In this document: positions 1,590-56,947 of the stretch, piece after piece
How positions within the stretch are numbered: the first letter of the stretch is position 1
How the letters are laid out: each line of letters opens with the position of its first letter
DNA from: Candidatus Heimdallarchaeota archaeon
GTDB lineage: Archaea; Asgardarchaeota; Heimdallarchaeia; Heimdallarchaeales; Heimdallarchaeaceae
NCBI GenBank assembly: GCA_021399345.1
Contig: JAAFKI010000112.1
Location: 45,753 to 109,752, forward strand
Direction of reading: 5' to 3'
DNA: 64,000 nucleotides
Position numbers and translations under genes: made by a program
Notes under the pieces: model-generated
The model's database searches: none
The model's input: the letters and a program-made list of their open reading frames with translations, nothing else
What the model was told of the DNA's origin: nothing

Positions 1590-2597
1590 ATGTCATTAAA
1601 AGGATTCATAATTAGAAGAACCATATATATTGTCCCAGTTATGCTTGGAATTACTTTGATGAATTTCACGCTTATCAATGTCAGTCCCGGTGATCCCGTA
1701 GTCGTCAGACTTGGGTTAATTCATTGTGATAATGACGACTGTTATAATGCAGCATACAATGGCGAAGCAATCGAAATGGGGCTTTTAGATAGCGATTTTT
1801 ACACCGTTCCATGGTTTAATCGATATGTAGATTTTGTTAATGATTTGCTTCATTTTGACCTAGGGAATTCGTGGTACTATACGCAGGCGGGTGAAGGTGT
1901 ACCTATATCGCAGATTATATCAGAACGAGCTATATATACAGTTGTACTAAATGTGCTCTCGTTCTTCTTCTCGTTATTACTCGCAACAGCAATAGGTGTA
2001 GTATCAGCAACACGTCAAAACTCTTTCTGGGATAGGTCGTTAACGGTCGCAATGCTACTAGGGTATTCAATGCCTCTGTTCTGGCTAGCTAAGCTCCTGA
2101 TGTTACTATCATTTCAATTATTCAATTTTACAGGAGTAGCCAATAAGGATGCATTCAGGAAACCACTGTTTTTGAATCCAAACTTCTATAAATATCTAAT
2201 ATTGCCAACTATAGCGTTAACACTAGGTGGACTGGTATTTATGGCAAGATTGGTAAGATCACAATTACTAGAGATTCTAAGACAAGATTATATAACAACA
2301 GCGAAAGCAAAAGGACTGGATAACAGAGCAGTAATTTACAAGCACGCATTCAGAAATGGATTGCTACCAATCGTTACAATAATTGGTAACTCCCTACCAG
2401 GATTACTAGCAGGGTCAGTAATGATTGAAGCAGTATTTGGATGGCCAGGACTTGGTACAGTCTTCCTAGAAGGAGCTCTATTTAGAGATTATCCGATGAT
2501 GATGGCTACGAACACGATCTTTCCGTTGCTCTTCTTAGTGGCGCGTTTACTTACGGATATCACGTACGTTTTCATCGACCCGAGGATTAGATACTAA
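1590..2597 (+). CDS. Oligopeptide/dipeptide ABC transporter permease (OppB/DppB-like)
   Basis: It is a multi-TM protein with the BPD_transp_1 family EAA-like loop (ITTAKAKGLDNRAVIYKHAFRN). It is followed on the same strand by a second permease and two peptide-type ATPases. Confidence 0.85.
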   Translation: MSLKGFIIRRTIYIVPVMLGITLMNFTLINVSPGDPVVVRLGLIHCDNDDCYNAAYNGEAIEMGLLDSDFYTVPWFNRYVDFVNDLLHFDLGNSWYYTQAGEGVPISQIISERAIYTVVLNVLSFFFSLLLATAIGVVSATRQNSFWDRSLTVAMLLGYSMPLFWLAKLLMLLSFQLFNFTGVANKDAFRKPLFLNPNFYKYLILPTIALTLGGLVFMARLVRSQLLEILRQDYITTAKAKGLDNRAVIYKHAFRNGLLPIVTIIGNSLPGLLAGSVMIEAVFGWPGLGTVFLEGALFRDYPMMMATNTIFPLLFLVARLLTDITYVFIDPRIRY

Positions 2598-2611
2598 GGT
2601 GTGATTTACAT

Positions 2612-3673
2612 ATGGCAACAGCAGAACACGAACAATCTACTGAATTTCTGTTAGATGAAAAAACTCTTCGAGAAATCGAAACCATGAAAGGAGCTGGTCA
2701 ATGGTCTATTGTCTGGCGACGTATTAAGAAAGACAAGATGGGTATGCTTGGTCTTTACATCGTCATTTTCCTTATCTTAATGGCTTTCGCATCTTGGATT
2801 TTACTCGGGTTTGACAACTGGCTTACTAGTCAAGGTGCTCTCCTTGGAGATCCCTCTAATCCAGCCAGTCTGAATAACCTCTATATTGAACTATGGTTAC
2901 CGGGAATGCCGGCGGAGAGTCCTCTTGTATTATTCCAACACCCCCGATACCATTTCCCTGAATTAGCTAAGCTTCCCCCATCATTTGCACATCCTTTTGG
3001 TACTGATGGAATTGGTCACGATATGGTATCACGTATTTTCTTTGGAGCAACTGTCTCCTTAGCTCTTGGTTTCATTGGTCAAATGACCACAGTTATCATT
3101 GGTACATTTTTAGGATCAATTGCGGGATTCTATGGTGGATTTATTGATGAAGTCCTACAAAGGATTATCGAAATTCTTTACTCAATGCCAGGCTTCATAC
3201 TGATGATATTCATTATAGTGCTCTTTGAGGATGTGAATATACCGGGAGGTAGGTACGCGGTAGTGGTAATATTCTTTTCACTCATCGGGTGGGGCGGAAC
3301 AGCTCTCATCGTAAGGTCAAACTTCTTCTCGTTGAAGCAACAAGACTTCGTTGAAGCGGAACGTGCGCTCGGTGCGAGTGATATGAGAATTATTTTCAAG
3401 CATATCCTACCGAACTCGTTGGCACCACTAATCATCATCGTAACGCTAGGGATTGCAAACACAATATTCCTATTTGCAGCTTTAGCATTCTTCGGTTTCG
3501 GAGACCCTAACGCTGTTTCGTGGGGTGATGATTTAAATAAATGGCAGAACGATTTACTCGATTATCCATGGATGCCGATGTTTCCAGCGCTATTTATTTT
3601 CTTCACGGTACTGGGTTTCAACCTCTTAGGTGACGCTTTAAGGGATGCTCTCGATCCAAGACTGAAGGATTAA
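2612..3673 (+). CDS. Oligopeptide/dipeptide ABC transporter permease (OppC/DppC-like)
   Basis: It is a multi-TM protein with a C-terminal permease motif (EAERALGASDMRIIFKHILPN). It lies 15 bp after the oppB-like gene. Confidence 0.85.
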   Translation: MATAEHEQSTEFLLDEKTLREIETMKGAGQWSIVWRRIKKDKMGMLGLYIVIFLILMAFASWILLGFDNWLTSQGALLGDPSNPASLNNLYIELWLPGMPAESPLVLFQHPRYHFPELAKLPPSFAHPFGTDGIGHDMVSRIFFGATVSLALGFIGQMTTVIIGTFLGSIAGFYGGFIDEVLQRIIEILYSMPGFILMIFIIVLFEDVNIPGGRYAVVVIFFSLIGWGGTALIVRSNFFSLKQQDFVEAERALGASDMRIIFKHILPNSLAPLIIIVTLGIANTIFLFAALAFFGFGDPNAVSWGDDLNKWQNDLLDYPWMPMFPALFIFFTVLGFNLLGDALRDALDPRLKD

Positions 3674-5128: not shown

Positions 5129-6199
5129 ATGAGTAGACCATCAGAAGATGTATTGTTGGAGATAAACGGGCTCAAAACATATTTCTTCACTGAAGAGGGT
5201 GTAGTTAAAGCAATAGAATCAGTTGATCTTGAGGTATATAAGTCAGAAACTCTTGGACTAGTAGGTGAGTCAGGATCAGGCAAATCAGTTACAGCTTTAT
5301 CTATATTAGGTATTGTCCCAGATCCGCCAGGTAAGATACTTGGTGGAGAGGTAATTTTCCACGGACAAGATCTTCGCAAACTTAGTGATTCAGATATGCG
5401 TAAAATAAGAGGGAACCAGATAGCAATGATTTTCCAGGACCCAATGACATCTCTAAATCCCGTCTTCACAGTAGGAGACCAAATTAGCGAAGCTATTATG
5501 CTACACCAAAAAGTTACAAAGAAAGAAGCAAAAGAGAAGGCAATTAAAATCATGTCTCTTGTAGGTATTCCAAGTGCAGATGAACGTGTAGACAACTATC
5601 CCTTTGAGTTCTCAGGCGGAATGCGTCAACGTGTAATGATTGCGATGAGTTTAAGTTGTAATCCTGAACTCTTGATTGCTGACGAACCTTCAACTAGTTT
5701 AGATGTTACCATTCAAGCTCAAATCCTTGAATTGCTCAAAGCTACAAGTGAAGAGTTCGACATGAGTATCATACTTATCACACACGATATGGGTGTTATT
5801 GCCGAGATGTGCGATAGAGTTGCTGTCATGTATGCCGGGTTTATTTGTGAAATTGGTGATATCATGATTATCTTCAAATCCCCTTATCATCCTTATACTC
5901 GTGGTTTATTAGGTGCGATTCCTCGTCCTGATGCAGCTCGTGATGATTTACAGATTATTCGCGGAGCTATCCCCAATCTTATCAATCCTCCATCTGCTTG
6001 TCGATTCCACCCACGTTGTGATTATCACATGTTGGGTCTTTGTGAAAGTGTCGTACCAGAATTAGTTGAAATAGAACCTGGACATTCAGTTCGATGCCAT
6101 CTTTATTCTAACGAAGGTAAAGCTTGGATGGCTGAAAAAGGAGATAAACGCGTTATTGGTACTGTACCAAAAAGTATTGTAGATGAGGTGACAAAATGA
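5129..6199 (+). CDS. Oligopeptide ABC transporter ATP-binding protein (OppD/DppD-like)
   Basis: It has a Walker A motif (GESGSGKS), a signature (FSGGMRQRVMIAMSL), a Walker B motif (LLIADEPSTSLD) and the C-terminal oligopeptide-ABC extension carrying a Cys/His cluster (CRFHPRCDYHMLGLC). Confidence 0.9.
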   Translation: MSRPSEDVLLEINGLKTYFFTEEGVVKAIESVDLEVYKSETLGLVGESGSGKSVTALSILGIVPDPPGKILGGEVIFHGQDLRKLSDSDMRKIRGNQIAMIFQDPMTSLNPVFTVGDQISEAIMLHQKVTKKEAKEKAIKIMSLVGIPSADERVDNYPFEFSGGMRQRVMIAMSLSCNPELLIADEPSTSLDVTIQAQILELLKATSEEFDMSIILITHDMGVIAEMCDRVAVMYAGFICEIGDIMIIFKSPYHPYTRGLLGAIPRPDAARDDLQIIRGAIPNLINPPSACRFHPRCDYHMLGLCESVVPELVEIEPGHSVRCHLYSNEGKAWMAEKGDKRVIGTVPKSIVDEVTK

Positions 6200-7419
6200 G
6201 TAGTGCAGATTCTTTTATTGATAAACTTCAAGAAAAACAACAGAAAAGGGGTTTACTTGCAGATCGTATTCGAACTAAGGAAATGGGAGAAGACGTCATT
6301 CTGGAAATAGAAAATCTAAAGAAATTCTTCGATATTCCAGTTCCCTTTGAAACTACATGGTTTATGATAGCTTTCGTAGCAGCAATCGTAGTATTTGCTT
6401 TTGAACAAATAATTGGACTCAGTATTATTGGAGCTATTATTGTTCTCTACTTTGCTTTACCATATATTCCTCCTTTCAATAAGCGACCTCGAGTAGCGCA
6501 TCTGAAAGCTGTTGATGGTATTTCCATTCAGATTAAAAAAGGAAAGATTGTTGGTTTAGTTGGTGAATCTGGTTGCGGAAAAAGTACAGCCGCAAAAACA
6601 ATCATAAGATTACACGAACCTACTGAAGGGGCGGTTTATTTCAAAGGTATTGACATCAATCGTCTAACTTCCGATGAAATGAAGGAGATTCGAAGACATT
6701 TACAGATAGTATTTCAAGATCCTTATGCTTCATTGAATCCAAGAGCTACAGCACATGATATTATTATCGAACCATTTGACATACATGGAGTTGCATCTGG
6801 TGATGAAGCTAGTTATAGAGTTTTAACTCTTCTAAAGGATGTAGGTCTTGCCCCTCACCATGCATACCGTTATCCTCACGAATTCAGTGGCGGACAACGT
6901 CAAAGACTAGGTATTGCTAGAGCTTTAGCATTGGAGCCTGATTTTATCGTCATGGATGAACCTGTATCTAACCTTGATGTATCAGTCCGTGCAGCTATTA
7001 TCCAGCTGATTTTACATTTGCAGAAAAAAATGGGATTAACCTATCTCTTTATTGCTCACGATCTTTCACTCGTTAAGATTCTTTGTGATGAAGTAAACGT
7101 CATGTATCTCGGTAAAATCATGGAAGCAGGAACCAGTGATGAAATCTTTGAAGCAATGATGCATCCTTATACTAAAGCCTTGATTTCAGCAGTACCAATA
7201 GCTGATCCTACAAAACGCTCAAAGAAAATCTTCTTGACTGGAGATATTCCAACTCCTATTAATCCTCCTCCAGGTTGCAAATTCCAAACACGCTGTCCTC
7301 TAGTATCGGATGTTTGCCGTGTTGAAGATCCACCAGCCAAATGGTATACTGCCTCTCATGTTGCATATTGCCACAATATTGAAGGTGGAGAAGATAGCCC
7401 TGATTCATATATTCAGTGA
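6196..7419 (+). CDS. Oligopeptide ABC transporter ATP-binding protein (OppF/DppF-like) with an N-terminal hydrophobic hairpin insertion
   Basis: It has a Walker A motif (GESGCGKST), a signature (FSGGQRQRLGIARAL), a Walker B motif (FIVMDEPVSNLD) and the oligopeptide C-terminal motif (CKFQTRCP). It overlaps oppD by 4 bp. About 50 extra residues with two hydrophobic helices (WFMIAFVAAIVVFAFEQIIGLSIIGAIIVLYFALPYIPPF) sit between the first beta-strand and the Walker A motif. Confidence 0.85.
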   Translation: MSSADSFIDKLQEKQQKRGLLADRIRTKEMGEDVILEIENLKKFFDIPVPFETTWFMIAFVAAIVVFAFEQIIGLSIIGAIIVLYFALPYIPPFNKRPRVAHLKAVDGISIQIKKGKIVGLVGESGCGKSTAAKTIIRLHEPTEGAVYFKGIDINRLTSDEMKEIRRHLQIVFQDPYASLNPRATAHDIIIEPFDIHGVASGDEASYRVLTLLKDVGLAPHHAYRYPHEFSGGQRQRLGIARALALEPDFIVMDEPVSNLDVSVRAAIIQLILHLQKKMGLTYLFIAHDLSLVKILCDEVNVMYLGKIMEAGTSDEIFEAMMHPYTKALISAVPIADPTKRSKKIFLTGDIPTPINPPPGCKFQTRCPLVSDVCRVEDPPAKWYTASHVAYCHNIEGGEDSPDSYIQ

Positions 7420-7535: not shown

Positions 7536-8288
7536 ATGAGTAGAGTAAATCTTGAATCAGCTAAAAACAATATTGAAAGGCTAGCTGCAAACCTCGACGA
7601 ATTACAACAGGTTTTAACTAGCAAAAAAGAAGAGATTAACGGGAAGATTAGAGAAATTATGGAAGTACTTTCCTCCTTCTTTAAAGAAGCTGATGATATC
7701 AATCAAACTATTAATTCAGGAGAAGAAAAGAAAAATCAAAGCTCGAATCAATTGGATCAACTCAATAATGAATTACAGGAGCTAAATCATAGAAAAGATA
7801 TTCTTCAGTCTGAAATCACCAGCAAACAAAGAGATATTGAACAGCTTTCAGCTTTAATTCTGGAAAGAGAAAAAACTAGTACGGAAGTTATTCTTCAAGT
7901 TGATTCCTTAAAAGAAAGAGTTGCGGACTTAAAACGCAAAATCGAAGAATTTGATGTTTTAACAGATGCATTAAATGAAGAAACCAAAGAACAAACAAGA
8001 ACTAGAGAAATTAAAAACGTCGACCTTGAAAATAATTTTAATCGAATACTTTCCCGTTCTAAATCTTTACAATATTTAGTGAAAAATGATATTGTTACTT
8101 TGCCAGAAATACAGGTTTTACGTAGTTTGAATACACCTGGGGTAGATAATGCTGAAAATCTTAAGAAAACCTCTGGTGTTTCTGATGACATTATTCGTAA
8201 AATTCTGCAAGACTTAGCTCGAAGAGAAATTATTGAATACGATCCTACCTCTGGAAAGTTCAAAGTGCTCTCAAGGATTGATATTTAG
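7536..8288 (+). CDS. Coiled-coil protein with C-terminal winged-helix-like domain
   Basis: It has a long heptad-rich region (EELQELNHRKDILQSEITSKQRDIEQL...). The C-terminal roughly 70 aa (DIIRKILQDLARREIIEYDPTSGKFKVL) resembles a MarR/TrmB-type winged HTH. Confidence 0.5.
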   Translation: MSRVNLESAKNNIERLAANLDELQQVLTSKKEEINGKIREIMEVLSSFFKEADDINQTINSGEEKKNQSSNQLDQLNNELQELNHRKDILQSEITSKQRDIEQLSALILEREKTSTEVILQVDSLKERVADLKRKIEEFDVLTDALNEETKEQTRTREIKNVDLENNFNRILSRSKSLQYLVKNDIVTLPEIQVLRSLNTPGVDNAENLKKTSGVSDDIIRKILQDLARREIIEYDPTSGKFKVLSRIDI

Positions 8289-9050
8289 GTGATTATGATG
8301 TCAGAAGAAAAATTAACAAACTTACTTGAAGAGATTAAGAGAGATGTTGAGGAATTATCCTCTCGTGTTTCAGCTACTATTTCAACATCTAAAGTGACAA
8401 TAGATTCTACAAAAGATGATGTTAGAGTCATCCCAGACTATATTGATTCATTAAAAAATTCTTTGCTTGGATTGAAGGAGAACAACGAACAACTAGAAGA
8501 GAAGGATATGCATACGCAACAATCAATTGAGACTACCACAACTGAAATAGAAATCAATGTTGTTAAGAAAAGTGAACTGGAATCTACAGAAAATAGTAAA
8601 AGACAATACAAAGAAGAAATTGAGCACAAAATTATTGATTTTCAACAGAAGATTAGTCAACTGGAATCAGAACATAACCAATTAAGTTCTGATGTCAAAG
8701 GTAAAGAACTGATTTATACTCAACTTCAAACTCAATCTAAGGAAACTATTGAAACATTGGATCAAAAAATAGCTGAAGCAACTGCTAGGTTGGCACAAGT
8801 AGAAGATGAAAATAAACTGATTGTGTATCTGATGGATGCTGGTCTAATGGATGTTCCTGAAGCAGAGGTTGTTGCAACAATCGCATCTCGTCCTGAAGGT
8901 CTTAAGCTAGCTGAGATTAAGGAAAAAGTCAATATGCCACCTGTTAGAGTTCAACCTACAATCAATAATTTGTTGGAATCTGTTATAGAATATGACACAA
9001 TGAGTGATTCTTACAAAATACTTGATATTATAAAGAAAGAACTAGAATAA
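8289..9050 (+). CDS. Coiled-coil protein with C-terminal winged-helix-like domain (paralog of preceding gene)
   Basis: It has the same architecture as the preceding gene. The C-terminus (LAEIKEKVNMPPVRVQPTINNLLESVIEYDTMSDSYKIL) is winged-HTH-like. It begins at a GTG or ATG directly after the upstream stop. Confidence 0.5.
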   Translation: MIMMSEEKLTNLLEEIKRDVEELSSRVSATISTSKVTIDSTKDDVRVIPDYIDSLKNSLLGLKENNEQLEEKDMHTQQSIETTTTEIEINVVKKSELESTENSKRQYKEEIEHKIIDFQQKISQLESEHNQLSSDVKGKELIYTQLQTQSKETIETLDQKIAEATARLAQVEDENKLIVYLMDAGLMDVPEAEVVATIASRPEGLKLAEIKEKVNMPPVRVQPTINNLLESVIEYDTMSDSYKILDIIKKELE

Positions 9051-9200: not shown

Positions 9201-10574
<1,374 letters not shown>

Positions 10575-10584
10575 TAATTATTTT

Positions 10585-10603
10585 TCGATGGATTATCCAT
10601 CGA
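10585..10603. terminator. Perfect palindromic hairpin flanked by T-runs between convergent genes
   Basis: The sequence tcgatggat-t-atccatcga forms a 9-bp stem with a 1-nt loop. It is preceded by ttttt and followed by taatttttcttattttt, and sits between the gdhA stop (10574) and the stop of the convergent 988-aa gene (10613). Confidence 0.5.
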
Positions 10604-10612
10604 TAATTTTTC

Positions 10613-13579
10613 TTATTTTTCAGGTTTTAAAATTATTCCTTCTCGTTTTTGAGCATCTATTCTAACTGTTAAAGAGTTTTTCAGCTCAATGTGTCTTACA
10701 AATTTCAAATCAGTTTTAGATTTTTGTTTGTTTAACCAATCCCAATCTATCTTATGATGCTCAGAATTGTGCTTAATATGGAAATACCCAATATTAGCTG
10801 ATACAATATTATGGAAGAAATGAGTGCCTTGAGAAAAATCAATTGAGAAACCTTCTAGAGTTGTCTCAATTATAGTTTTCGCTCCATTAATATTACTCCA
10901 TTTAGCAGGTATTCCTAAAAATCTATCAGCTGTCCCCCACCTACCAAAACCTATTAACAAGTAGGGGCGATTCTTCTTAGTTAATTGGGAATTTAGTAAA
11001 TCTATTTCTTCAACAATTTCTAGAGTTTTTGTCTTATCAAACATCTCTGCTTTAGCATAAACAATATCCTTGATATCCGAGTGGAGAAGGTTTCCCGACA
11101 CATGCGAAGAAAATGCTAAGATTTGATTAACATCTACAACCTCAAAATCATCTAACAAAAGAGCTTCTTGTTGTAAAAATGGTCTTATTTGTAATATAGA
11201 GAATTGATCCTTTTCGCTCTTCGAATTACTGAAGTTTCCAGCAAACTCAACTTCTATGGAAGAACCTAGAGCTCTTTCGCCAACAGATAAAATTCTGGTT
11301 ACCAATCTTGCTAAAGGTGTAGTTTCAAATTTTAATTGCTGATTGAATGTTATAACGGGGGATCCTTCACCAAAGAAACCGTCTTCTAAAGATTCTGTAT
11401 TGAAGTTATAATTATCTGCGATTTTAGATAAGGTTCCCTCTTTGATTGCATCTCCAAGGTGTAAGCGTTTAATATATGGATCATCATCTAGGATATCAAA
11501 TTCAGTTTTTGTTAAATCAACACAGTAGTAATATTTTTGGCTTTGGTCTAATAATAAATCAGGTGTTGAGTGGTAATTCAATTTAGGATATTTAGGACAA
11601 AACCGCACAGCAGATTCTCCTTCGACAATTGTTTTACCAAGTCCTAGAGCTAGATGCGCAATCCTATCTTCAGGTTTCATATAGTCTCCAAAGGGGTAAT
11701 AATTATATGAAGCAGCAGTTCCAGAGAAATCTGGATAATGATGATTGTGTCTCTCTTTCCCTACTACTCTTTGTATAACAACGGCCATTTTCGATTCTTC
11801 AACAGTCTGTTGAATGGTTTCTACATATGATTTTGCAAGTTTTAAGAATTGAGAGGCATAAACAAGTTTTATAGCTGTACATAGTTGCTCAAGCTTTTCC
11901 TTCTTACTTCCATGATTATTAGGAATCATATAAGTATCGAAAATTCCGGCGAATGGTTGGTACGCAGAATCTTCTAGAAGACTTGATGAACGAATAGCTA
12001 AAGGACCATCTAAATCTTTGAGTAAGAACGCTAAGTCATTTCTTAGACTCCTTGAAAGTTTGCTATTAACGAAGCTCTTCTTTATTTCAGAATCTGGAGC
12101 ATCTGATAAAGCGAATTCATATAGATTATTTTCTTCCATGAACTTATCATATTCATCAGTACCAATAACAATGGTTTTTGGAATTTCTATATTTACTGTA
12201 GGAAAATCATCTTTAATCATTAACGAGTTAAGGAGAAACATCAAGAAAGCAATCCCCCTTCCTTTTCCTCCTAATGAACCTGGTCGTAATCTTAGATATA
12301 GAGTCTCAGGATGATAATTATCTCGAGAGAAATCATTAATAACACCTCTTGTTTTTTCTATTACAATATTATCTATTGTTTTAATTAGAAAGTCTCTAAG
12401 CTCAATTTCAGTAAATTCAGAAACTTTCCGAGGTTTTAATGTTTCAGCAATATCGAATTCTCCTCTTGCATGTAACCAGTTGGAGAAATGATCACTTTTC
12501 CCATGATAAACTAAGGAATTTAAAGGTACTTCAGAAAGTTGCTTGTAAAAGGTAATGACATCAGTAGCATGACCATAAATATTGCCATCCTGATCTTTAA
12601 ATATGAACTCTCCAAATCCAACATATTCTAGAAGCCATTTCCGAAGATCCCACAGCATACCATGTGACCGTTTATGAATGAAATAACAGTGCATCTCTTC
12701 GGCTTGTTCTCGATAAGAATCTTTACTTGATTGTAGAACAATAGGTAAGTTGGGAAAATCTTTTTTTATTTTCTCTGCAAAGAGAAATCCAGCTTTTTTG
12801 TTGAGTTCGCCATCAAGTGGAAACTCGATATCTGAGATAACGCCCATTACGTATTCTTTATAACGTTCATAATATGACACAGCTTCTTCATAATTCTCTG
12901 CAAGCAAAATTTTTGGTCTTACTCGCATCTTGAGTAAATCCTGAAAATCATTTGTACCTTCAGTAATTAACCGATGAGTTTGCCTCATAATTTCTCCATA
13001 AACTTCTGGAAGCATTAGAGAATAGGACCTAATTGAATCATCAACAAAGATAAAAACTCTTACATTGCCAGCTTCTGTATCGAAATCCGCATTAAATCTA
13101 TCCTCAAGATGTTTGATAATAGCAATGAAAATCTTACTGTCTCCATTCCAAACAAAGACTCTATCTATACCTTCTCGTTTACTAAATTCTGGAAGATACT
13201 TGATTTCTACAACACTATTTAATAGAAGAATTACAGGAATATCTTGGATTTCCTTAACATTTGTCCCAAAAGAAAAAGCATCCATATCTCCTAATCGTCT
13301 CATGGTGATAACTAAATCAAACTTTTTCTCTTCTAGCATATCCAAGGCTTCATTTGCAGAAGATACCCGAGTAATTCTTGGTAGAGTTCGAAGATTGAGA
13401 TTTTGAAATTCTTCATAAATTTGATCAGATAATCGACCATCCTCTTCTAACATAAAACTATCATAAATACTAGAAACAAGAAGGACGTTTCTCATTCTTC
13501 TATTCATAAGTTCATGAAAGATTTTGTATTTTGGTTTATATTCTAGAAAGAAGCTAACTGCTTCTTGATCAGTAGTCAA
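10613..13579 (-). CDS. Large multidomain protein with receiver-like N-terminal modules and a PPDK_N (PEP/pyruvate-binding, ATP-grasp) domain
   Basis: The central region matches the N-terminal nucleotide-binding domain of PEP synthase and pyruvate phosphate dikinase (RLRPGSLGGKGRGIAFL ... LAIRSSSLLEDSAYQPFAGIFDTY). The N-terminal roughly 300 aa contains two CheY-like alpha/beta modules (RNVLLVSSIYD..., VRVFIFVDDS...). I found no phosphohistidine (GGRTSHAAI) domain and no PEP-utilising TIM-barrel domain. Confidence 0.7.
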   Translation of the reverse strand: MTTDQEAVSFFLEYKPKYKIFHELMNRRMRNVLLVSSIYDSFMLEEDGRLSDQIYEEFQNLNLRTLPRITRVSSANEALDMLEEKKFDLVITMRRLGDMDAFSFGTNVKEIQDIPVILLLNSVVEIKYLPEFSKREGIDRVFVWNGDSKIFIAIIKHLEDRFNADFDTEAGNVRVFIFVDDSIRSYSLMLPEVYGEIMRQTHRLITEGTNDFQDLLKMRVRPKILLAENYEEAVSYYERYKEYVMGVISDIEFPLDGELNKKAGFLFAEKIKKDFPNLPIVLQSSKDSYREQAEEMHCYFIHKRSHGMLWDLRKWLLEYVGFGEFIFKDQDGNIYGHATDVITFYKQLSEVPLNSLVYHGKSDHFSNWLHARGEFDIAETLKPRKVSEFTEIELRDFLIKTIDNIVIEKTRGVINDFSRDNYHPETLYLRLRPGSLGGKGRGIAFLMFLLNSLMIKDDFPTVNIEIPKTIVIGTDEYDKFMEENNLYEFALSDAPDSEIKKSFVNSKLSRSLRNDLAFLLKDLDGPLAIRSSSLLEDSAYQPFAGIFDTYMIPNNHGSKKEKLEQLCTAIKLVYASQFLKLAKSYVETIQQTVEESKMAVVIQRVVGKERHNHHYPDFSGTAASYNYYPFGDYMKPEDRIAHLALGLGKTIVEGESAVRFCPKYPKLNYHSTPDLLLDQSQKYYYCVDLTKTEFDILDDDPYIKRLHLGDAIKEGTLSKIADNYNFNTESLEDGFFGEGSPVITFNQQLKFETTPLARLVTRILSVGERALGSSIEVEFAGNFSNSKSEKDQFSILQIRPFLQQEALLLDDFEVVDVNQILAFSSHVSGNLLHSDIKDIVYAKAEMFDKTKTLEIVEEIDLLNSQLTKKNRPYLLIGFGRWGTADRFLGIPAKWSNINGAKTIIETTLEGFSIDFSQGTHFFHNIVSANIGYFHIKHNSEHHKIDWDWLNKQKSKTDLKFVRHIELKNSLTVRIDAQKREGIILKPEK

Positions 13580-13958
13580 TTTATCACATCCTAAGAACTT
13601 CTTGACAGACAGTTAGACATAACATCATATGACATTTAAATATGTTGAAGTTCAATCCTTAAAAAAGGAAAAAAATGAAAGAATAGTAATTTTCTTTATT
13701 TTGCTGCTATTTATTTAATATTTTATTAGTGAAAATACTGGAATAATAACCATAGAAATATCTTCTTCATACAGTTTATATGGAAAAAATCAATTGGACG
13801 CATATTATAATCACAAGGTGTGAAACATCTATTTTCTCCATTTTAGCAAAATCATTCCAATGATTAGAAGTAAGTAATAATATTTTTATTACCATGTTTC
13901 AATATAATACTACATACAAAGCTATATTGATATAGCTCTTTAGTGGGAAATTTCAGAG
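13580..13958. promoter_or_regulatory. Divergent AT-rich intergenic region (probable shared promoter region)
   Basis: A 379-bp non-coding stretch of more than 75% AT lies between the start of the minus-strand 988-aa gene and the plus-strand HTH-repeat gene. Several TATA-like TTTATA/TTTAAATA elements are present. Confidence 0.35.
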
Positions 13959-14840
13959 TTGATGAAAATGGAACCTAACAATCAAGGAGATGAAGCTCTA
14001 TTTGAGGAAAATATTCCAGCTATGTTAGAGAATGTTCCATTAAATGAAAGAGACGCACTAATAGTAGAAATGTATGAGGATGGCCTCTCTACATATGAGA
14101 TTGCCATAGAACTTGAACTGAACAGACACACAGTTTCAAGAGTTCTCAAAGAAAATAGAATTGAAACTCGTACAATTGCAGATTATCATAAATTCAAGCA
14201 TGAAGATATTGAAAATCTTTTTAATCGAGGTAAATCAAAACACGAGATAGCTAAAGAGCTTGGATTGACATATTATACAGTTAGAAAAGTTCTAGAAGAT
14301 AGAGGTTTCATTAGAAATAGGAAGGATAAAGAAACATTACGTATTGCCAACTATGTCCAAATGAAGAATAGAGGTTATGATAATGAGGCTATATCAATCT
14401 ATCTTGGATTAAATGATGTGAAGCAACTTAACAAACTAATTCGTAATTCAACTGTAAATATAACAGCTGTCAGACAGAAGACAAAGAAAATTGAGAGTCT
14501 TCCAGACATTGTTAGAGATAGATTAGAGGGTAAATCCATTCATGATATTTCCATGAAATATAACCTTTACATTCTAGATGTTATTGACATCTTATACGAA
14601 TTTGGTTTAACGATTGCTAAATACAAAGAAATTTACGTTTATCACAAACAAGGAAAAACAATAGAGGAAATTTCGGAAAAACTAGAGCTCTCTGTTTTTA
14701 CTGTTAGGAGAGTAATAAATAAATTGAAGGAAATTGAAAAATCTGTTAAACTGGCATTTACACCCAAGCAAATAGCGGAAAAGTTGAATATTACTACTCT
14801 AGCTGTAAAAAGAACAATAGAAACTCTTCAGCTAATATGA
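13959..14840 (+). CDS. DNA-binding protein composed of 5-6 tandem helix-turn-helix repeats
   Basis: It contains a repeated module of about 45 aa, each ending in a sigma-70 region 4/resolvase-type HTH. Examples are LSTYEIAIELELNRHTVSRVLKE, SKHEIAKELGLTYYTVRKVLED, KSIHDISMKYNLYILDVIDIL, KTIEEISEKLELSVFTVRRVINKL and TPKQIAEKLNITTLAVKRTIETL. Confidence 0.6.
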   Translation: MMKMEPNNQGDEALFEENIPAMLENVPLNERDALIVEMYEDGLSTYEIAIELELNRHTVSRVLKENRIETRTIADYHKFKHEDIENLFNRGKSKHEIAKELGLTYYTVRKVLEDRGFIRNRKDKETLRIANYVQMKNRGYDNEAISIYLGLNDVKQLNKLIRNSTVNITAVRQKTKKIESLPDIVRDRLEGKSIHDISMKYNLYILDVIDILYEFGLTIAKYKEIYVYHKQGKTIEEISEKLELSVFTVRRVINKLKEIEKSVKLAFTPKQIAEKLNITTLAVKRTIETLQLI

Positions 14841-18036: not shown

Positions 18037-19713
18037 TTATTTAACGAACATGTTACCTTTATTGAATAGATTTTGAGGATCCAAGACGTTTTTAACATCA
18101 CGCATTTGATTAACTCCATCTTCACCATACATTACTATCAAATATTCAGCTTTGATTTTACCAATACCATGTTCAGCAGAAACTGATCCACCAAACTCTA
18201 CTGCTTTCTTAGCGAATTTTTTATAGAGTTTCTTACCTAATTCAAGCTCCTCAATATTTCTAGGTAGTATATTCACATGAACGTGAGAATCACCTATATG
18301 TCCCCATGTAGCACTTTCAAGGTTGTGTTCTTCTAGAGATTCTCTATAGATATTCATCATTTCTCTGAAATGCTCATGCTCAACGGACATATCAGTTCCC
18401 AGTTTGTGAATCGCAGGATACTCGCTTTTTCTCTTAGCTATTATAGCATTGACAGTTTCAGGAACTGCATGTCGCATAACTTTAAGATTTTCTCGTTCAA
18501 CTTCATCAAATGCTGACCAGCATGAATCAATTGAAGAATTACATTCACTAGCAATTTCATCTAGTTTTACAATTATGTCCTCAAGAGTTTCTTCACTATA
18601 AACAACTTCAAAGAAAATTGCAGTTTTAATTTCAGGAGGGATTGTTTGAAGATTAGCTAATGCGGGATTTGTGTCTTTTTTACTTTTCAGGAGATTAAAT
18701 GAGTGTTCATCGAAGTATTCCATATATTCAACAATTAGCTCATCATCAGTTCTAAGTTTTTCAACAAAAGAAATCGCATCGTCTTCTGAAGTGAAGAACA
18801 TTACATTTGGCAATCCTTCTACTGTTGGAACTATCCAAAGATCAACTTCTGTTATAAAACCTAGCATTCCTTCTGTACCTATGAAAAGCTCAATTACATC
18901 CATACCAGGTTTTGAATAGAAACCTGCAGCATTTTTTGCTTTTGGCATTTGATAAGTTGGAATGGTGACTTCTAGTTTTTGATCACTTGTCGCTATAATG
19001 AATTTACCATTTTCGGCATTGCATTGTCCTCTAGTCATATCAAGAACATCACCATTTGCTAAAATAACCCTCATACGCTTTACCCAAGGTCTCATTGAGC
19101 CGTATTTGAATGATCTTGCACCTGATGCATTAGCTGCAATGGCACCCCCAACAGCTGCTGACATTTCGGTTGGGTCTACTGCAAACATGAATGTTTCCGA
19201 ATCATGTTTGAATTTGTCAACCCAGTTTGTATCACCAATATTCTGCTGTTCAGTGAACTCTTTGTGTTTAATAACATCTTCAAGAGCGTCAAGAGTAATA
19301 CCTGGTTGAACTCTTACGAAGTATTTCTGGTTAGTTTCATCAAACCCAAAACCAAGCACTTTTGCCATATCATCTGTTGATACAACAGCTCCACCAAAAG
19401 GAACAGCACTCCCAACAATCCCTGTTCTACCTCCAGAAATTGTTATTGGTATTCCTCTGTCTTTCATCTTCTTTATGATAGTAATAACTTCAGATTCATT
19501 CTTAGGAAAGAATAATAGTTCAGCAGATCCTCCTGCTAACTTCGATTCGTCGATTATATAATCAGGATGTTTTGAAGAAATTGTTTCTGAGCCCTCAACC
19601 TTATTAATGGTGTCATAAGGACTTCCTTCTTTTTTCTTAGCAGTAATTGCGCTTGTACCCAAATGTGTCACATCCGTTCGCACTGTTTTTGTCCAGTTCA
19701 ACAGAAAAAGCAT
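18037..19713 (-). CDS. FAD-linked oxidase (GlcD / D-lactate dehydrogenase family)
   Basis: It has an FAD-binding PCMH domain (ISGGRTGIVGSAVPFGGAVVSTDDM) and an FAD-oxidase C-terminal domain (HIGDSHVHVNI...SVSAEHGIGKIKAEYL). The ORF-track start at 19983 gives a Pro/Ser-rich extension that overlaps the divergent gene. I trimmed the start to the Met at 19713 (MLFLLNWTKTV...). Confidence 0.8.
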   Translation of the reverse strand: MLFLLNWTKTVRTDVTHLGTSAITAKKKEGSPYDTINKVEGSETISSKHPDYIIDESKLAGGSAELLFFPKNESEVITIIKKMKDRGIPITISGGRTGIVGSAVPFGGAVVSTDDMAKVLGFGFDETNQKYFVRVQPGITLDALEDVIKHKEFTEQQNIGDTNWVDKFKHDSETFMFAVDPTEMSAAVGGAIAANASGARSFKYGSMRPWVKRMRVILANGDVLDMTRGQCNAENGKFIIATSDQKLEVTIPTYQMPKAKNAAGFYSKPGMDVIELFIGTEGMLGFITEVDLWIVPTVEGLPNVMFFTSEDDAISFVEKLRTDDELIVEYMEYFDEHSFNLLKSKKDTNPALANLQTIPPEIKTAIFFEVVYSEETLEDIIVKLDEIASECNSSIDSCWSAFDEVERENLKVMRHAVPETVNAIIAKRKSEYPAIHKLGTDMSVEHEHFREMMNIYRESLEEHNLESATWGHIGDSHVHVNILPRNIEELELGKKLYKKFAKKAVEFGGSVSAEHGIGKIKAEYLIVMYGEDGVNQMRDVKNVLDPQNLFNKGNMFVK

Positions 19714-19747
19714 AAAAACCTTCACATTCTTATAAAAAACAGAGAAC

Positions 19748-20863
19748 ATGACTATAAAAAAATTAACAAAACAAGAATCAATAGATCTTGTAATAGGAGC
19801 AAAAATTTTAGCTTGTGGAGGAGGAGGAAGTGAAATTAGTGCTTTGGCAAATATCAATAGAATATATGAAAGTGGCTTGAATTTTACAATTGCAGATTTA
19901 GACGATTTCAAACAGGATGAATATATTGGCATAATTGGGATGGTGGGAGGCGGTATTACAGAGGAGGACAAACTACTAGTCAAAAATCGGGAAATTGTTC
20001 AGAAAAAGCCAATGATTACAGCTATCAGAGAATTGGAAAATTTTTTAGATATAGAATTCAGTGCATTTGTTGCAACTGAACTTGGACCGAATAATAGCGT
20101 TATTCCAATGATGGTAGCAGCAGAAATGGGAAAAGTAGCAATTAATGGAGATTGTTGTGGAAGAAGTAAACCAAAAATCTCAATTAGTACAACAAGAGTT
20201 GCGGGTATTCCTATAGCACCATTTACAATAGTGAATCAATACGGAGATATTCAAATCGTAAAAGAGACCATTGATGATGTAAGAGGAGAGTTGATTGCCA
20301 GAAATGCATCTAGGTTATCAGGTGGTTCAGTAAGTGTGGCTAGATGTCCCATGAGAATAGAGGAAGCTCAAAAAGCTGTTATTCCAAAAACCTACTCATT
20401 AGCTGTTGAACTAGGAAAGAATGTTAGGGAAGCTAACGAAGAAGGATTTAACCCAATTGAATCAATTAAAAATACATTACCAAATGCAGAACATGTTTTC
20501 TCCGGAAGAGTAAAGCTGTTCTCCAGAGTTGAAGAGGGAGGTTTCACAGCAGGTGAAATAATAGTAAAATCATCAATGAATACAGGAGTTAATCTAAAAA
20601 TCTGGTATCAGAATGAATATCTTCTTTCATGGATTAACAACAAACCATATGTAACTTGTCCGGATGGGTTCTATGTAGTAGACACAAAAACAGGTCTAGG
20701 TCTTTCACCTTGGGAAGAGGATTTCAAGCAAGACAGAAAAATATCAGTTTTTGTTCAAGATGCCCCAGAGATCTGGAAATCGAAAATAGGATTGAGTGTT
20801 TTTGGTCCCAAAGTATTTAATGAAAATTGGAAAAAATACAAAGAGTCCAGTTCCTTCTCTTGA
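19748..20863 (+). CDS. Conserved hypothetical protein (possibly DUF917-like)
   Basis: A 371-aa ORF with an N-terminal GGGGSE glycine loop (AKILACGGGGSEISALANI) and no clear catalytic motif. The family assignment is uncertain. Confidence 0.45.
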   Translation: MTIKKLTKQESIDLVIGAKILACGGGGSEISALANINRIYESGLNFTIADLDDFKQDEYIGIIGMVGGGITEEDKLLVKNREIVQKKPMITAIRELENFLDIEFSAFVATELGPNNSVIPMMVAAEMGKVAINGDCCGRSKPKISISTTRVAGIPIAPFTIVNQYGDIQIVKETIDDVRGELIARNASRLSGGSVSVARCPMRIEEAQKAVIPKTYSLAVELGKNVREANEEGFNPIESIKNTLPNAEHVFSGRVKLFSRVEEGGFTAGEIIVKSSMNTGVNLKIWYQNEYLLSWINNKPYVTCPDGFYVVDTKTGLGLSPWEEDFKQDRKISVFVQDAPEIWKSKIGLSVFGPKVFNENWKKYKESSSFS

Positions 20864-31873: not shown

Positions 31874-33577
31874 ATGATTAACATAAAAAAACATAAACTA
31901 ACAATAAAAGTTTGCTTAACTGTTCTTCTTATTGCACTTTTATTAATTCCACTTTTGAGTGATGGAAATATTGGAAGTATAGTTGAAGATGAACAGATAT
32001 CTGAAATAAAGCTATTTACAACAGTTGGAATCGTAATTAATGATACTAACATAGCATCCTATAGCTCCTCAGGAACAGGTGCAACTGGTGACCCTTATAT
32101 CATTGACAATCTAATGATCAATACAACAGATTCATTAGCAGTTGATTTTAAAGGTGTATCATCAACAACCTACTATGTTCTTCGTGACTCTCATCTGATA
32201 GGTTCAACTTATGGGGCTTACTTTCATGATTCTATGACAGGAAAAGCTTCTGTTATCAACTGTACAGTTGAGGGTGCATTGTCAATCGGAGGACCTAACG
32301 CTTTGTATCTAACTATTCACAACAATACGCTTAAAGCAAGACAGAGCTCTAACTTTAGAGAAGGTGTGAAATTTACAAACAACGTAGTTTATTTAACAAG
32401 TGATTACTCTAGCTCCATCTTTCGAATAACAGATGAAAACAATATTGTAGAGAATAATATTTTTTATGGAAATTCTTCAGCGATTAGAATAAATCGTGTT
32501 ACAAATACCACTTTTAGAGATAACATCCTTCACAGTTCAGGATTCTATTTCTCTGATGATGAAATTGAATATATTTTGAATAATACATTTGAAAACAATA
32601 TTATCAATGGTAAACCTTTTGGATTTTTATATAATCAAAATGATGAAATTGTAACTGACGACCAATATGGACAAATATATCTAGTTAACTCAACCAACGT
32701 ACTAATAGAAGACCATTCTTTTGTTGATGTATATTCCGGAATTCAAATCTATAATTGTACTGATATTTCTGTAAGAAATGTGGAAGTGAAAGCTAACACA
32801 GGAATTTATGCAGAAAATGTTGAAGAAATATTGATAGAAGATTCTAGCTTTGAAGGGTACCGTGATGCAATGCAATTTGAAGGTGTAAATAATAGTATTA
32901 TTCAAAACAACTACATAACTGATTTTGAATATGGTTTGGAATTTGAATATATGAATAATGTCCAGATAAATAATAATACTATAGTAAATATGCTTGAATA
33001 TGGACTTACCTTAGACGAGGTAAGTAATGTAGATATAAACTTCAATATCATAACTTGCTTAATGCAAGACGAAGGGAGTGAAATACCCATAGTAATATGG
33101 TCATCAGAAAATATAACCGTATTTTATAATGTCTTTATTAGCACAGGAAATCAAACAGCTCATATGGCAGAAGAGTGGTCAACGACAAATATAATGTGGT
33201 ATGATGCAACTTCAGAAATTGGAAACTTTTGGTCAAACTGGAATGAAACAGGAACTTATGCAATAGAGGGTGATGGAGGAAGCATTGACCTATATCCATT
33301 CTTAGACATAGATGGAGACAATCTTACTGAAATTGAGGAAGTATTAATTTACTTTACAGATCCTTTCACTGCCGACAGTGATGGGGATGGGTTCTCAGAT
33401 TATGAGGAAATACAAACTGGTACTGACCCATTGGACAGTAAGGATTACCCTGGAAGAGGTAGAGTCTTAGGAATTGTCTTAGGCTTAGTATTTGGACTAG
33501 GTATAGCTGCAGGTGTAGCTGTCTTCTTCCTGTCAAAGAAAGGTATAATTAAACTACCCAACTTAAGAGGAAAATAG
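31874..33577 (+). CDS. Secreted right-handed parallel beta-helix (NosD/pectate-lyase-like) protein with Ca-binding D-x-D-G-D-G repeats and C-terminal membrane anchor
   Basis: It has a signal/TM N-terminus, many N-x-S/T sequons, repeated beta-helix rungs (NNIINGKP..., NVEVKANTGIY...), DSDGDGFSDYEEIQTGTDPLDS (TSP3/dockerin-like) and a C-terminal GIVLGLVFGLGIAAGVAVFFLSKKG. Confidence 0.65.
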   Translation: MINIKKHKLTIKVCLTVLLIALLLIPLLSDGNIGSIVEDEQISEIKLFTTVGIVINDTNIASYSSSGTGATGDPYIIDNLMINTTDSLAVDFKGVSSTTYYVLRDSHLIGSTYGAYFHDSMTGKASVINCTVEGALSIGGPNALYLTIHNNTLKARQSSNFREGVKFTNNVVYLTSDYSSSIFRITDENNIVENNIFYGNSSAIRINRVTNTTFRDNILHSSGFYFSDDEIEYILNNTFENNIINGKPFGFLYNQNDEIVTDDQYGQIYLVNSTNVLIEDHSFVDVYSGIQIYNCTDISVRNVEVKANTGIYAENVEEILIEDSSFEGYRDAMQFEGVNNSIIQNNYITDFEYGLEFEYMNNVQINNNTIVNMLEYGLTLDEVSNVDINFNIITCLMQDEGSEIPIVIWSSENITVFYNVFISTGNQTAHMAEEWSTTNIMWYDATSEIGNFWSNWNETGTYAIEGDGGSIDLYPFLDIDGDNLTEIEEVLIYFTDPFTADSDGDGFSDYEEIQTGTDPLDSKDYPGRGRVLGIVLGLVFGLGIAAGVAVFFLSKKGIIKLPNLRGK

Positions 33578-48130: not shown

Positions 48131-48163
48131 ATATAAAAATAATCAAAACGTTATTCCAAGAAA

Positions 48164-50434: not shown

Positions 50435-51778
50435 CTATTTCTTCCTACTTCTTCTAATTACTAGAATTATTATAGAAATTGAGGTTAGGAAAAATACTAA
50501 ACCAATCTTTTGTGAAAGCTCAGGGACTATAAGGGGGGTTCCTAGAGGATAAGGGTCAACAGAACTGGCTGTTCCAGCAATGACATAATCTCCGCCGTAC
50601 CAGTTATTCCACCAGTTTCCTTCGTTGGTAGTAGTATCAAACCAAATGTTGTTAGCTCCAGAATCACTTGCTTGAGAATTTCCAATATTATTATCTATGA
50701 AATGATTATGGTGGATAATTATATTAGAAACAGCAACATCAAGAACTATACCAAAGCTTGGGTGCTGTTGAATAGTATTGTAGGTTATATTGGTGTTAAT
50801 TGTACTTTGCAATTCTAATCCAAAGACCTCACTTCCAATAAAGGAATTATTTGAGATTTGAAGATTTTCAGAATTAATAACAAGAAGGTTATTTTTTTCA
50901 TTTGCTTCAAAGGTATTGTTAATTATATCTGCATAGGAGACAATATTCATAAATATACCCGCAATTTCCCAATGTTCGAAATCAGGAAGTCCATCCATTG
51001 CTATGTTCTTCACTATGTTTTCTTTAACCAAAATTCTATCAGAATTTGTTATATAAATCCCTGCGAAGAGAGTACTTTCTTCAAGATTCATATAGTTCTC
51101 TGTAATGTTAGTGTCTGAGCAATCATAAACAAATATTACTGAATAATCTTCGGGGTCATCGCTATATTTAAGATAATTTCCAGGTTCTTCTGGGTTTGAT
51201 CGAAGTTCGTTTTCAAAGTTGTTTTTGAATGTCAAGCTTGGAGGAACTAGTTTGTAAATATCATTGTTTTTTATTCTTGAATTAGTACAATTTTTCAGAA
51301 TGATACCCTTAACATATACGAGAGTATTATCCTCAATTACTGTACCTTTAGAATCTTCAACATAAATGCCGTTTCCTAATAGCATTAAATTGTTGTTAAT
51401 TATCTTAGCCGTGTTACTTTTAACATTTTCAATTAATATTCCAGATAATGTTGAACTAACTCCTAATCGGGAAATCTCGTTGTTTCTAATTTCAAAGTAT
51501 TTTGTTGTATTTGCAACAGTAATTCCAGATTCACCTTCCCCCACCTCAATATCTTTACCTTGTATGATGTATGGATGTGTTTCATTTCCATATCCAGGAT
51601 AGCTAGCAAAATCTGAATCATCGTCAATCAATATAATAGGATCAGCCTTTATAGAGGGCAAAAGATCATTTTGAGAAAAAGCATTAGTGGTGGTAATCAT
51701 ATTACTAGGGAGAAGAAATAACAGAAGTAGTATAGAAAAAATTGTTATTGATAGTATTTTTTTATTTTTCATTTTCAC
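50435..51778 (-). CDS. Secreted parallel beta-helix protein with C-terminal TM anchor (paralog of 31874..33577)
   Basis: It has a signal peptide and beta-helix rungs (NNNLMLLGNGIYVEDSKGTVIEDNTLVYVKG...). Its C-terminal GDYVIAGTASSVDPYPLG parallels IEGDGGSIDLYPFL of the 31874 protein, and it ends with a TM helix plus RRSRKK. Confidence 0.65.
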   Translation of the reverse strand: MKMKNKKILSITIFSILLLLFLLPSNMITTTNAFSQNDLLPSIKADPIILIDDDSDFASYPGYGNETHPYIIQGKDIEVGEGESGITVANTTKYFEIRNNEISRLGVSSTLSGILIENVKSNTAKIINNNLMLLGNGIYVEDSKGTVIEDNTLVYVKGIILKNCTNSRIKNNDIYKLVPPSLTFKNNFENELRSNPEEPGNYLKYSDDPEDYSVIFVYDCSDTNITENYMNLEESTLFAGIYITNSDRILVKENIVKNIAMDGLPDFEHWEIAGIFMNIVSYADIINNTFEANEKNNLLVINSENLQISNNSFIGSEVFGLELQSTINTNITYNTIQQHPSFGIVLDVAVSNIIIHHNHFIDNNIGNSQASDSGANNIWFDTTTNEGNWWNNWYGGDYVIAGTASSVDPYPLGTPLIVPELSQKIGLVFFLTSISIIILVIRRSRKK

Positions 51779-56524: not shown

Positions 56525-56947
56525 GTGATAACTCAAAATGACATGGTGAACATAATGACTGCTGAAACTGTGGAGTTGAAATTCGATCAAGAAGAGATAG
56601 ATAAAGCTGAGGAAGAATACAAGAAGCTTCATCTAGATCCTGCTCAACAAGACATGGTTGACTCCATAACAAAAATCATGAATGAACTGGTGCCAATACC
56701 TGAAGCAGCTATTAAGGGATTCACATGGAAAGTCATGAGTAATTGGCAGAGGATGCGTAGAATTACAATAGCCGAGTTAAATAATAGACCTCTAAGAGAT
56801 AGAATAGAGGTAACTAAAGAGATGATTAAGCAAGCAAAGAAATTTTTTGTTAGTCTTCTTTCAGAATCTACACCTGAGCAGAGAGAGATACTGGAAAGAA
56901 AGTTTGATACGGTTTTAAAACAAAGCTCAGAGTTATTGAAAAATTAG
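56525..56947 (+). CDS. Hypothetical protein
   Basis: A 140-aa helical ORF with no motifs. Confidence 0.35.
   Translation: MITQNDMVNIMTAETVELKFDQEEIDKAEEEYKKLHLDPAQQDMVDSITKIMNELVPIPEAAIKGFTWKVMSNWQRMRRITIAELNNRPLRDRIEVTKEMIKQAKKFFVSLLSESTPEQREILERKFDTVLKQSSELLKN

Follow-up and report, generated by a model that had tools for sequence, protein, structure and literature searches.

A 64,000-nt stretch of contig JAAFKI010000112.1 from a Candidatus Heimdallarchaeota archaeon (hereafter the window; GC content ~34% over its whole length) carries, at positions 10613-13579 of the minus strand, a gene for a 988-aa protein in which receiver (REC) modules are fused to PPDK_N, the ATP-grasp domain of pyruvate phosphate dikinase (PPDK) and phosphoenolpyruvate (PEP) synthase. 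This REC-PPDK_N protein belongs to a family that is large, conserved and functionally uncharacterized. In archaea and bacteria alike, this family has its conserved partner in a glutamate dehydrogenase (GDH) gene and not in the divergently oriented gene of a helix-turn-helix (HTH) repeat protein with which it had been paired in an earlier note on this DNA. Domain composition, residue conservation and gene neighborhood tentatively suggest a response regulator under two-component control that would act on or with the adjacent NADP-dependent GDH through a dikinase-like, ATP-dependent output; this is the preferred reading, held at somewhat less than an even chance. Worth following up are the family-wide coupling to NADP-GDH and a C-terminal domain with a conserved histidine; the architecture itself has already been catalogued, and the pairing with the HTH-repeat gene is incidental.

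Family distribution and linkage to glutamate dehydrogenase

A HMMER search with the window protein against 1.84 billion cluster representatives (50% identity clusters) yielded 4501 matches at E ≤ 1e-3, of which 991 reach E ≤ 1e-30. The best 150 representatives are all relatives, down to 31% identity over the full length, and most of them measure ~960-1050 aa and match in a single stretch from about residue 15 to 987, the others being fragments or extended forms. A few members are extended at the N-terminus or have their ATP-grasp domain duplicated in tandem. Named members stem from Heimdallarchaeota LC_3, Bacteroidales, Myxococcota, Caldisericia and Anaerolineales, and the NCBI product name for the family is “PEP/pyruvate-binding domain-containing protein.” Full-length orthologs are 54-94% identical to the window protein, and its closest counterparts are encoded in Heimdallarchaeota metagenome-assembled genomes (MAGs), with 94-96% identity in CSMAG-type MAGs and 87% along the entire length for the AB_125 ortholog HeimAB125_05440 (OLS32769; P0004).

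The latter protein and HeimC2_11830 were listed as “REC-PPDK” in a published census, in which REC-PPDK is termed a “Bacteroides-like combination” (Galperin et al., 2018, J Bacteriol 200:e00681-17, PMC5847659). These entries belong to the same family as the window protein. The census passages on REC-PPDK give the domain combination only, without a division into pseudo-receiver and receiver, a DUF5752-like domain or a C-terminal domain, and they mention neither the absence of the phosphohistidine and TIM-barrel domains nor the linkage to GDH (PMC5847659). As the layout has already been catalogued and is widespread, REC-PPDK_N constitutes a large conserved family and not a rare fusion. No description of a coupling of the family to GDH, or of its His-bearing C-terminal domain, was found in the searchable literature, which likewise yielded nothing on DUF5752 (PF19027).

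In the window, the GDH gene is located at 9234-10574 on the plus strand and encodes a bacterial-type, NADP-specific enzyme, which scores 756 bits with NF006929 (cut-off 536) as opposed to 224 bits with the archaeal GdhA model (cut-off 750). Its best matches in the PDB are the GDH entries 5gud/5ijz, with the GDH entries 4fcc/3sbo as further relatives, and it is 57-68% identical to GDHs on metagenomic contigs that bear family members. The stop codons of the GDH and REC-PPDK_N genes face each other across a spacer of 38 bp (10575-10612) that contains a hairpin with an 8-bp stem (TCGATGGA/TCCATCGA), bordered on either strand by runs of T (RNA folding energy -10.9 kcal/mol, z-score -2.9), and this element looks like a shared bidirectional terminator.

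Gene neighborhoods were compared in a genome set of 80 loci, in which a GDH neighbor was defined by >50% identity to the window GDH, and in a second, independent set of 88 loci, which consists of 80 metagenomic loci (39-51% identity) and eight loci of distant representatives. All locus counts are raw and ignore kinship among the loci. GDH was found to adjoin the PPDK_N gene in 38 of the 80 genome loci. In the closest clade, Heimdallarchaeaceae, it is located convergently downstream, as in the window (23 of 35 loci), while Hodarchaeales-type loci carry it in divergent orientation ~440 bp upstream (13 of 17); it is present in 2 of 28 Anaerolineales or Thor-type loci. Within the second set, 54 of 88 loci exhibit a GDH homolog within a few kilobases, as do 34 of the 50 loci for which both flanks span at least 2 kb. 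Its usual place is immediately upstream in the same orientation, at a distance of 160-400 bp. GDH also forms by far the largest cluster of neighboring genes (50 of 85 loci), followed by a response regulator with 10 loci. The occurrence of three different arrangements in several phyla argues against a single inherited accident.

Several bacterial loci show more elaborate versions of this context. In Caldisericia, a single strand carries genes for GDH, REC-PPDK_N, a PPDK_N paralog without receivers, a further GDH, an aminotransferase and a 2-hydroxyacid dehydrogenase, and a Bacteroidales contig contains a GDH and REC-PPDK_N operon that faces the gene of a 1557-aa paralog. Several metagenomic contigs (L094, L104, L112, L117, L127 and L100) combine two or three GDH-family genes and one or two paralogs with genes for a histidine kinase and a DNA-binding response regulator. 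In Anaerolineales loci without GDH, a pair of histidine kinase and OmpR-type response regulator genes is located divergently upstream.

A second paralog beside the first is encoded in many bacterial loci, for example at 9930-12233 of L084, 54-2792 of L094, 6300-9281 of L100 and 2475-5429 of L088, and some of these second copies are devoid of the receiver region (767 aa in Caldisericia). Their presence hints at hetero-oligomers or at opposing activities.

Both GDH and REC-PPDK_N of the window look bacterial in type, which suggests transfer between the domains of life, possibly of the two genes as a pair. The Asgard pair would thus illustrate the acquisition of a regulatory-metabolic module. Copies from Anaerolineales are ~50% identical to the window protein over the full length.

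Domain composition and conserved residues

The 988-aa reading frame described earlier is contained in the list of open reading frames (ORFs), and its TTG start is considered real, because the N-terminal 25 residues are conserved among orthologs. The protein is organized, from N- to C-terminus, into a pseudo-receiver (REC1), an intact receiver (REC2), a DUF5752-like domain, the PPDK_N ATP-grasp domain and a C-terminal domain. The earlier note had given a largely correct domain map of two CheY-like modules, PPDK_N and an uncharacterized C-terminal region, in which the size of this last region, the additional middle domain and the degeneracy of one receiver required correction. A Foldseek search with the full-length model identified PleD, a protein with tandem receivers, as the best match (E 2e-8), followed by HpeI and PPDK. 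Sequences were aligned for 24 Asgard orthologs (A1) and for 76 relatives of 32-55% identity (A3), and the conservation counts given below refer to the latter.

Both N-terminal modules adopt a (beta-alpha)5-type fold in the model, in agreement with the predicted CheY-like modules, and differ in their phospho-acceptor pockets. REC1 (residues ~28-150; 13130-13498, minus strand) is matched only partially by the Pfam family Response_reg (residues 62-119), at 31.5 bits just over the gathering score. Its acceptor position, within the motif FDLVITM, is occupied by M93 (codon 13301-13303), and the commonest residues in this column of the 76 relatives are M, T, S, F, V and L. Asp is not among them, and REC1 is therefore classified as a pseudo-receiver. 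REC2 (residues ~172-306; 12662-13066, minus strand) carries a long insertion in alpha1 (residues 183-218) and possesses the full pocket of a response regulator, comprising the acidic pair D180/D181, the acceptor D250 (codon 12830-12832), S284 and K303, in addition to the CheY-like fold; the pocket is what REC1 lacks. These positions are conserved in 76 (E/D180), 65 (D181), 69 (D250), 71 (S284) and 73 (K303) of the 76 relatives. The receiver of RssB/Hnr was found to be closest to the REC2 sequence profile among PDB sequences (E 0.007), and D250 aligns with the Asp of its MICD motif, the phosphorylation site of RssB. Like PleD, the window protein thus places one phosphorylatable and one degenerate receiver in front of an enzymatic output, but the pseudo-receiver comes first, in reversed order, REC2 contains the alpha1 insertion and the output is an ATP-grasp instead of a GGDEF domain.

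The middle domain (residues 307-434, ~130 aa; 12278-12661, minus strand) is composed of a beta-hairpin and helices in the model and contains an invariant GFG motif (321-323) and an invariant W368. PF19027 (DUF5752) matches this domain in 17 of 46 relatives, with a best E-value of 1.1e-8, but not in the window copy. When residues 286-400 (12380-12722), which span the end of REC2 and part of the middle domain, were compared with PDB sequences by phmmer, only designed half-barrel proteins with two-fold HisF symmetry were matched with E 2e-8, and natural HisF with ~2e-3. The predicted structure of this stretch is a hairpin plus helices and not a (beta-alpha)4 half-barrel, and the similarity may reflect the known relationship between flavodoxin-like proteins and HisF or chance.

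The ATP-grasp domain extends over residues 435-803 (11171-12277, minus strand) and corresponds to positions 3-311 of the 328 positions of PF01326 (E 5.8e-33). The proposed PPDK_N assignment is hence borne out, including the motifs GGKG (437-440) and AIRSSSLLEDSAYQPFAGIFDTY (528-550). Residues G437, G438, K439, R530, S531, S532, E536, D537, Q603, E776, E778, Q797 and R799 are invariant or nearly so, and K439, R530, E536, D537, Q603 and Q797 were found in all 76 relatives, so that every nucleotide- and metal-binding residue to be expected is retained.

If the protein were a conventional PEP synthase or PPDK with overlooked domains behind the ATP-grasp, it would share PF01326 and show similarity to PEP synthase models, and a weak similarity of this kind does exist. 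The best NCBIfam similarities of the window protein are to the PigC, RedH, PEP synthase and rifampin phosphotransferase (RPH) equivalogs. These reach only the first half of the ATP-grasp domain and score 10-50-fold under the cut-offs, as exemplified by PEP synthase (TIGR01418, 32.8 bits versus 739.75) and RPH (NF041857, 22.3 bits versus 999, residues 501-607 only). Neither the phosphohistidine domain (PF00391) nor the PEP-utilizing TIM barrel (PF02896) was detected in the window protein at E ≤ 0.1, and none was present in 46 relatives. Their absence, asserted previously from the letters alone, thus holds by Pfam, hhalign and Foldseek. Compared with PEP synthase and PPDK, with which it shares a homologous ATP-grasp domain and a common set of Lys, Arg, Glu and Gln residues (Foldseek matches 1kbl/1dik), the window protein lacks both domains and has ~435 additional N-terminal residues of signaling domains. 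Its C-terminal domain, at 185 aa, is unrelated to PEP-utilizers by hhalign. A search for a genuine PEP synthase in the fetched loci and the window retrieved only the ATP-grasp parts of REC-PPDK_N family members. The REC-PPDK_N protein thus does not represent a conventional PEP synthase or PPDK, and the overlooked-domain explanation is given next to no weight.

As PPDK_N reaches to residue 803, the C-terminal region, previously estimated at ~350 aa, is reduced to ~185 aa (residues 804-988; 10616-11170, minus strand). Modeled on its own, it forms a mixed alpha/beta domain with a pLDDT of 86 and a pTM of 0.85. Its hallmarks are the motif GxGRWG[ST] (877-883), E905 and the sequence S916-x-G918-[ST]-H920-F-F, which is located at the start of a helix. 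R880, E905 and G918 are conserved in 76 of 76 relatives and S916 and H920 (codon 10820-10822) in 74 of 76.

Because the sequence SQGTHFF resembles the GGxTSHAA motif of phosphohistidine domains, homology to the swivel domain was tested. A divergent swivel domain appeared conceivable from the beta/beta/alpha-like pattern, but none of the tests lent support to it. A profile of the domain found no match among PDB sequences, and a Foldseek search of its model against the PDB returned nothing at E < 0.001 (best TM 0.38), with PPDK, EI and RPH not among the top matches. A Pfam scan of the C-terminal domains of 50 members gave no match at E ≤ 10, and hhalign assigned a probability of 1.7% to a relationship with a PEP-utilizers profile built from 48 sequences (E. 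coli PpsA, PtsI and PtsP plus 45 database homologs). In view of these uniformly negative results, H920 is treated as a conserved candidate only. With an invariant Arg/Glu/His set and neither a Pfam family nor a fold match in the PDB, the domain is a target for structural and mechanistic work. The Hodarchaeales ortholog P0097 is annotated with PF27715, perhaps a recently created family for one of the unassigned domains.

Possible function and competing explanations

According to the preferred reading of a GDH-directed response regulator, a histidine kinase would phosphorylate D250 of REC2, which would free or reorient the ATP-grasp domain, with REC1 acting as an adaptor or dimerization module as in PleD. 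The ATP-grasp domain would then phosphorylate a carrier residue, as it does in PPDK, PEP synthase and RPH, and H920 is the best candidate for this residue. The phosphorylated or ATP-bound protein would in turn act on GDH by modification or binding, or else on a metabolite at the glutamate/2-oxoglutarate node, thereby tuning nitrogen and carbon flux.

A parallel is provided by VadK (Rv1127c) of M. tuberculosis, a truncated PPDK that autophosphorylates at His422, captures methylcitrate synthase and dehydratase in pull-downs and adjusts the flux through the methylcitrate cycle (PMC13400623). VadK likewise lacks the PEP/pyruvate barrel, has an active ATP-binding domain and regulates interacting metabolic enzymes without making PEP. 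However, it contains a phospho-transfer His domain, whose catalytic His422 was assigned by overlay on PPDK structures, and no receivers were described for it (PMC13400623). The window protein, in contrast, combines two receiver-type modules with a C-terminal domain without detectable homology to the His domain, and its candidate partner is GDH and not an enzyme of the methylcitrate cycle. In HpeHI, a PPDK_N-type ATP-grasp domain functions as a separate polypeptide, with the carrier located elsewhere (PMC12167813). These two precedents render the mechanism outlined above plausible. Together with the Foldseek match to HpeI, the VadK precedent also makes the likeness to truncated dikinase phosphotransferases and regulatory kinases, drawn in the earlier note, an apt one.

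A number of points weigh against the preferred reading. The full-length AlphaFold model is of only moderate confidence (pLDDT 77, pTM 0.54). The C-terminal domain shows no detectable homology to a phosphohistidine domain, and the candidate role of H920 as carrier is deduced from its conservation and its local beta-loop-helix context. The link to GDH is drawn from gene neighborhood alone, and most Anaerolineales loci lack GDH, as do some others (L087, L089 and L091). In the window, the two genes are convergent and therefore not co-transcribed, so that any coupling would be functional and not transcriptional. Lastly, a scan of 20 large ORFs in the window revealed no histidine kinase.

The main competing explanation is a small-molecule dikinase, which, alone or with a separately encoded carrier or substrate-binding subunit, would phosphorylate a low-molecular-weight compound of amino-acid or 2-oxoglutarate metabolism in the manner of RPH, HpeHI, phenylphosphate synthase and PigC, would be switched on by phosphorylation of the receiver and would have GDH as a mere pathway neighbor. 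With the exception of VadK, the characterized PPDK_N-only or truncated relatives act on small molecules. RPH, HpeHI and phenylphosphate synthase all employ PPDK_N-type ATP-grasp domains outside PEP metabolism, the best NCBIfam similarities (PigC, PEP synthase, RedH and RPH) point in the same direction, and HpeI (9goj), which belongs to a split dikinase (PMC12167813), is a structural match. A multi-subunit enzyme would be in line with the PPDK_N paralog without receivers that is encoded after the gene in Caldisericia and elsewhere, and amino-acid catabolic genes are located nearby in L084 and L090. Yet RPH, HpeHI and phenylphosphate synthase carry no receiver fusion, and they possess a recognizable swivel His domain together with a domain for substrate binding, either in cis or on a partner subunit, while Foldseek and hhalign detected nothing like the rifampin-binding domain of RPH or a swivel domain in the window protein. 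All NCBIfam scores are far under the cut-offs, and no consistent second pathway gene besides GDH emerged among the loci. Enzymatic outputs of response regulators are, moreover, usually signaling or protein-modifying and not catabolic. A small-molecule dikinase is hence regarded as possible but rather doubtful.

Alternatively, the protein might control GDH or another partner purely by binding, with the ATP-grasp domain serving as an ATP/AMP sensor or as an autophosphorylating switch. The working model for VadK is one of competitive binding (PMC13400623), neither a TIM barrel nor a swivel domain is detectable, the pseudo-receiver and the DUF5752-like domain could serve as interaction surfaces, and GDH is adjacent. 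The strictly conserved catalytic set of the ATP-grasp domain, however, argues for turnover, and R880, E905, S916 and H920 look like an active site, so that regulation by binding only appears unlikely. The remaining probability is shared by the pairing with the HTH-repeat protein, the ordinary dikinase and some alternative not considered here.

GDH occupies the point where carbon and nitrogen metabolism meet, and its switching is poorly understood in most anaerobic bacteria and archaea. With ~1000 residues and its tie to GDH in Asgard archaea, Caldisericia and Bacteroidales, REC-PPDK_N offers a concrete candidate for a GDH switch. If the preferred reading is true, it would extend the idea, founded on VadK, of PPDK-derived regulatory kinases of metabolic enzymes and add a new class of enzymatic output to two-component signaling. 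A bolder version, speculative and to be held with considerable reserve, envisages REC-PPDK_N and GDH as a widespread, undescribed post-translational module that is shared horizontally between bacteria and Asgard archaea; a two-component signal would drive the ATP-grasp domain to load phosphate onto a carrier domain of a new type (H920), without kinship to the classical swivel domain, and this carrier would phosphorylate GDH or switch it in another way. Reversible inactivation of GDH in vivo has long been reported in anaerobes such as Bacteroides, and the module, if true, could be the mechanism behind it. Baggio and Morrison are said to have described in 1996 the gdhA gene of Bacteroides thetaiotaomicron with “trans-acting genes downstream,” which is an unconfirmed lead; a locus considered in this connection, BT1971, proved to encode a catalase.

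The HTH-repeat gene and further genes of the window

Upstream of the REC-PPDK_N gene, the HTH-repeat gene (13959-14840, plus strand) is transcribed divergently and encodes a protein of 293 aa that is matched by dozens of HTH Pfam families and consists of six HTH units according to the alignment of the units, at the upper end of the five to six modules predicted. The intergenic region between the two genes (13580-13958) indeed comprises 379 bp and is AT-rich (25% GC compared to 34% in the window). A search for operators and repeats in this spacer revealed a single imperfect palindrome of 13 nt at 13915-13942.

Homologs of the HTH-repeat protein number 42, all of them from Heimdallarchaeaceae and mostly 218-220 aa in length. 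A BLASTP alignment with the homolog P0128 covers residues 4-218 of the window protein, i.e., its first four units, and the two additional C-terminal units are related to unit 2. The attribute “rare architecture” given in the earlier note thus suits the HTH-repeat protein and not the PPDK_N protein. The best NCBIfam match is Cbp1 (NF040595), the CRISPR repeat-binding protein of Sulfolobales, which is likewise built of tandem HTH units. The score, however, remains below threshold (68.2 bits in three stretches, cut-off 140), and the window protein differs from Cbp1 in its six units and in having homologs confined to Heimdallarchaeaceae.

It had been proposed that the PPDK_N and HTH-repeat proteins form a dedicated sensory and transcriptional pair that shares one promoter region, and co-conservation with PPDK_N-only genes had been named as a check. 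The divergent arrangement around the AT-rich spacer is in line with this proposal, as is the presence of the HTH-repeat gene near the PPDK_N gene in 17 of 35 loci of the closest clade (PPDK_N proteins of ≥64% identity). Beyond the closest Heimdallarchaeaceae, co-conservation is absent, since the gene is missing from the other 45 genome loci (Hodarchaeales, Thor and Anaerolineales) as well as from the entire metagenomic and distant set of 88. In addition, the spacing between the two genes varies from 0.4 to 1.7 kb (1.7 kb in the 95% identical relative L002), and in 13 loci, including the 95-96% identical L001 and L002, an MFS-transporter-like gene is located ~100 bp upstream of the PPDK_N gene. 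The helicase and small membrane protein genes that lie past the HTH-repeat gene are syntenic to a similar degree, and the adjacency is therefore attributed to ordinary local synteny. The HTH-repeat gene is a clade-specific neighbor and not a component of the conserved module, the proposed pair finds no support, and a dedicated regulatory pair is considered very unlikely.

Further genes surround GDH in the window. Shortly upstream of the GDH region, an oligopeptide-type ABC transporter is encoded by two permease genes at 1590-3673 and two ATPase genes at 5129-7419, of which the first ATPase carries an oligo_HPY C-terminal region and the second is syntenic in 28 loci, a context consistent with peptide or amino-acid catabolism. 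Two adjacent genes (7536-8288 and 8289-9050) code for long coiled-coil proteins of ~250 aa, the first with a weak MksE- or TrmB-like match toward its C-terminus, and both genes likewise precede GDH in the nearest Heimdallarchaeaceae relatives (19-21 of 80 loci). An ORF of 648 aa at 18037-19983 encodes a FAD-linked oxidase that resembles GlcD and D-2-hydroxyglutarate dehydrogenase over residues ~357-644. Its first ~100 residues resemble low-complexity read-through, and translation probably begins at a later codon. Proximity of a D-2-hydroxyacid dehydrogenase to GDH could point to a metabolic relation with 2-oxoglutarate. The second half of the window contains unrelated genes, among them three for TPR or MalT-like-TPR proteins of 640, 712 and 648 aa (46208-50302 and 56944-58890) and two for NosD/beta-helix proteins (31874-33577 and 50435-51778).

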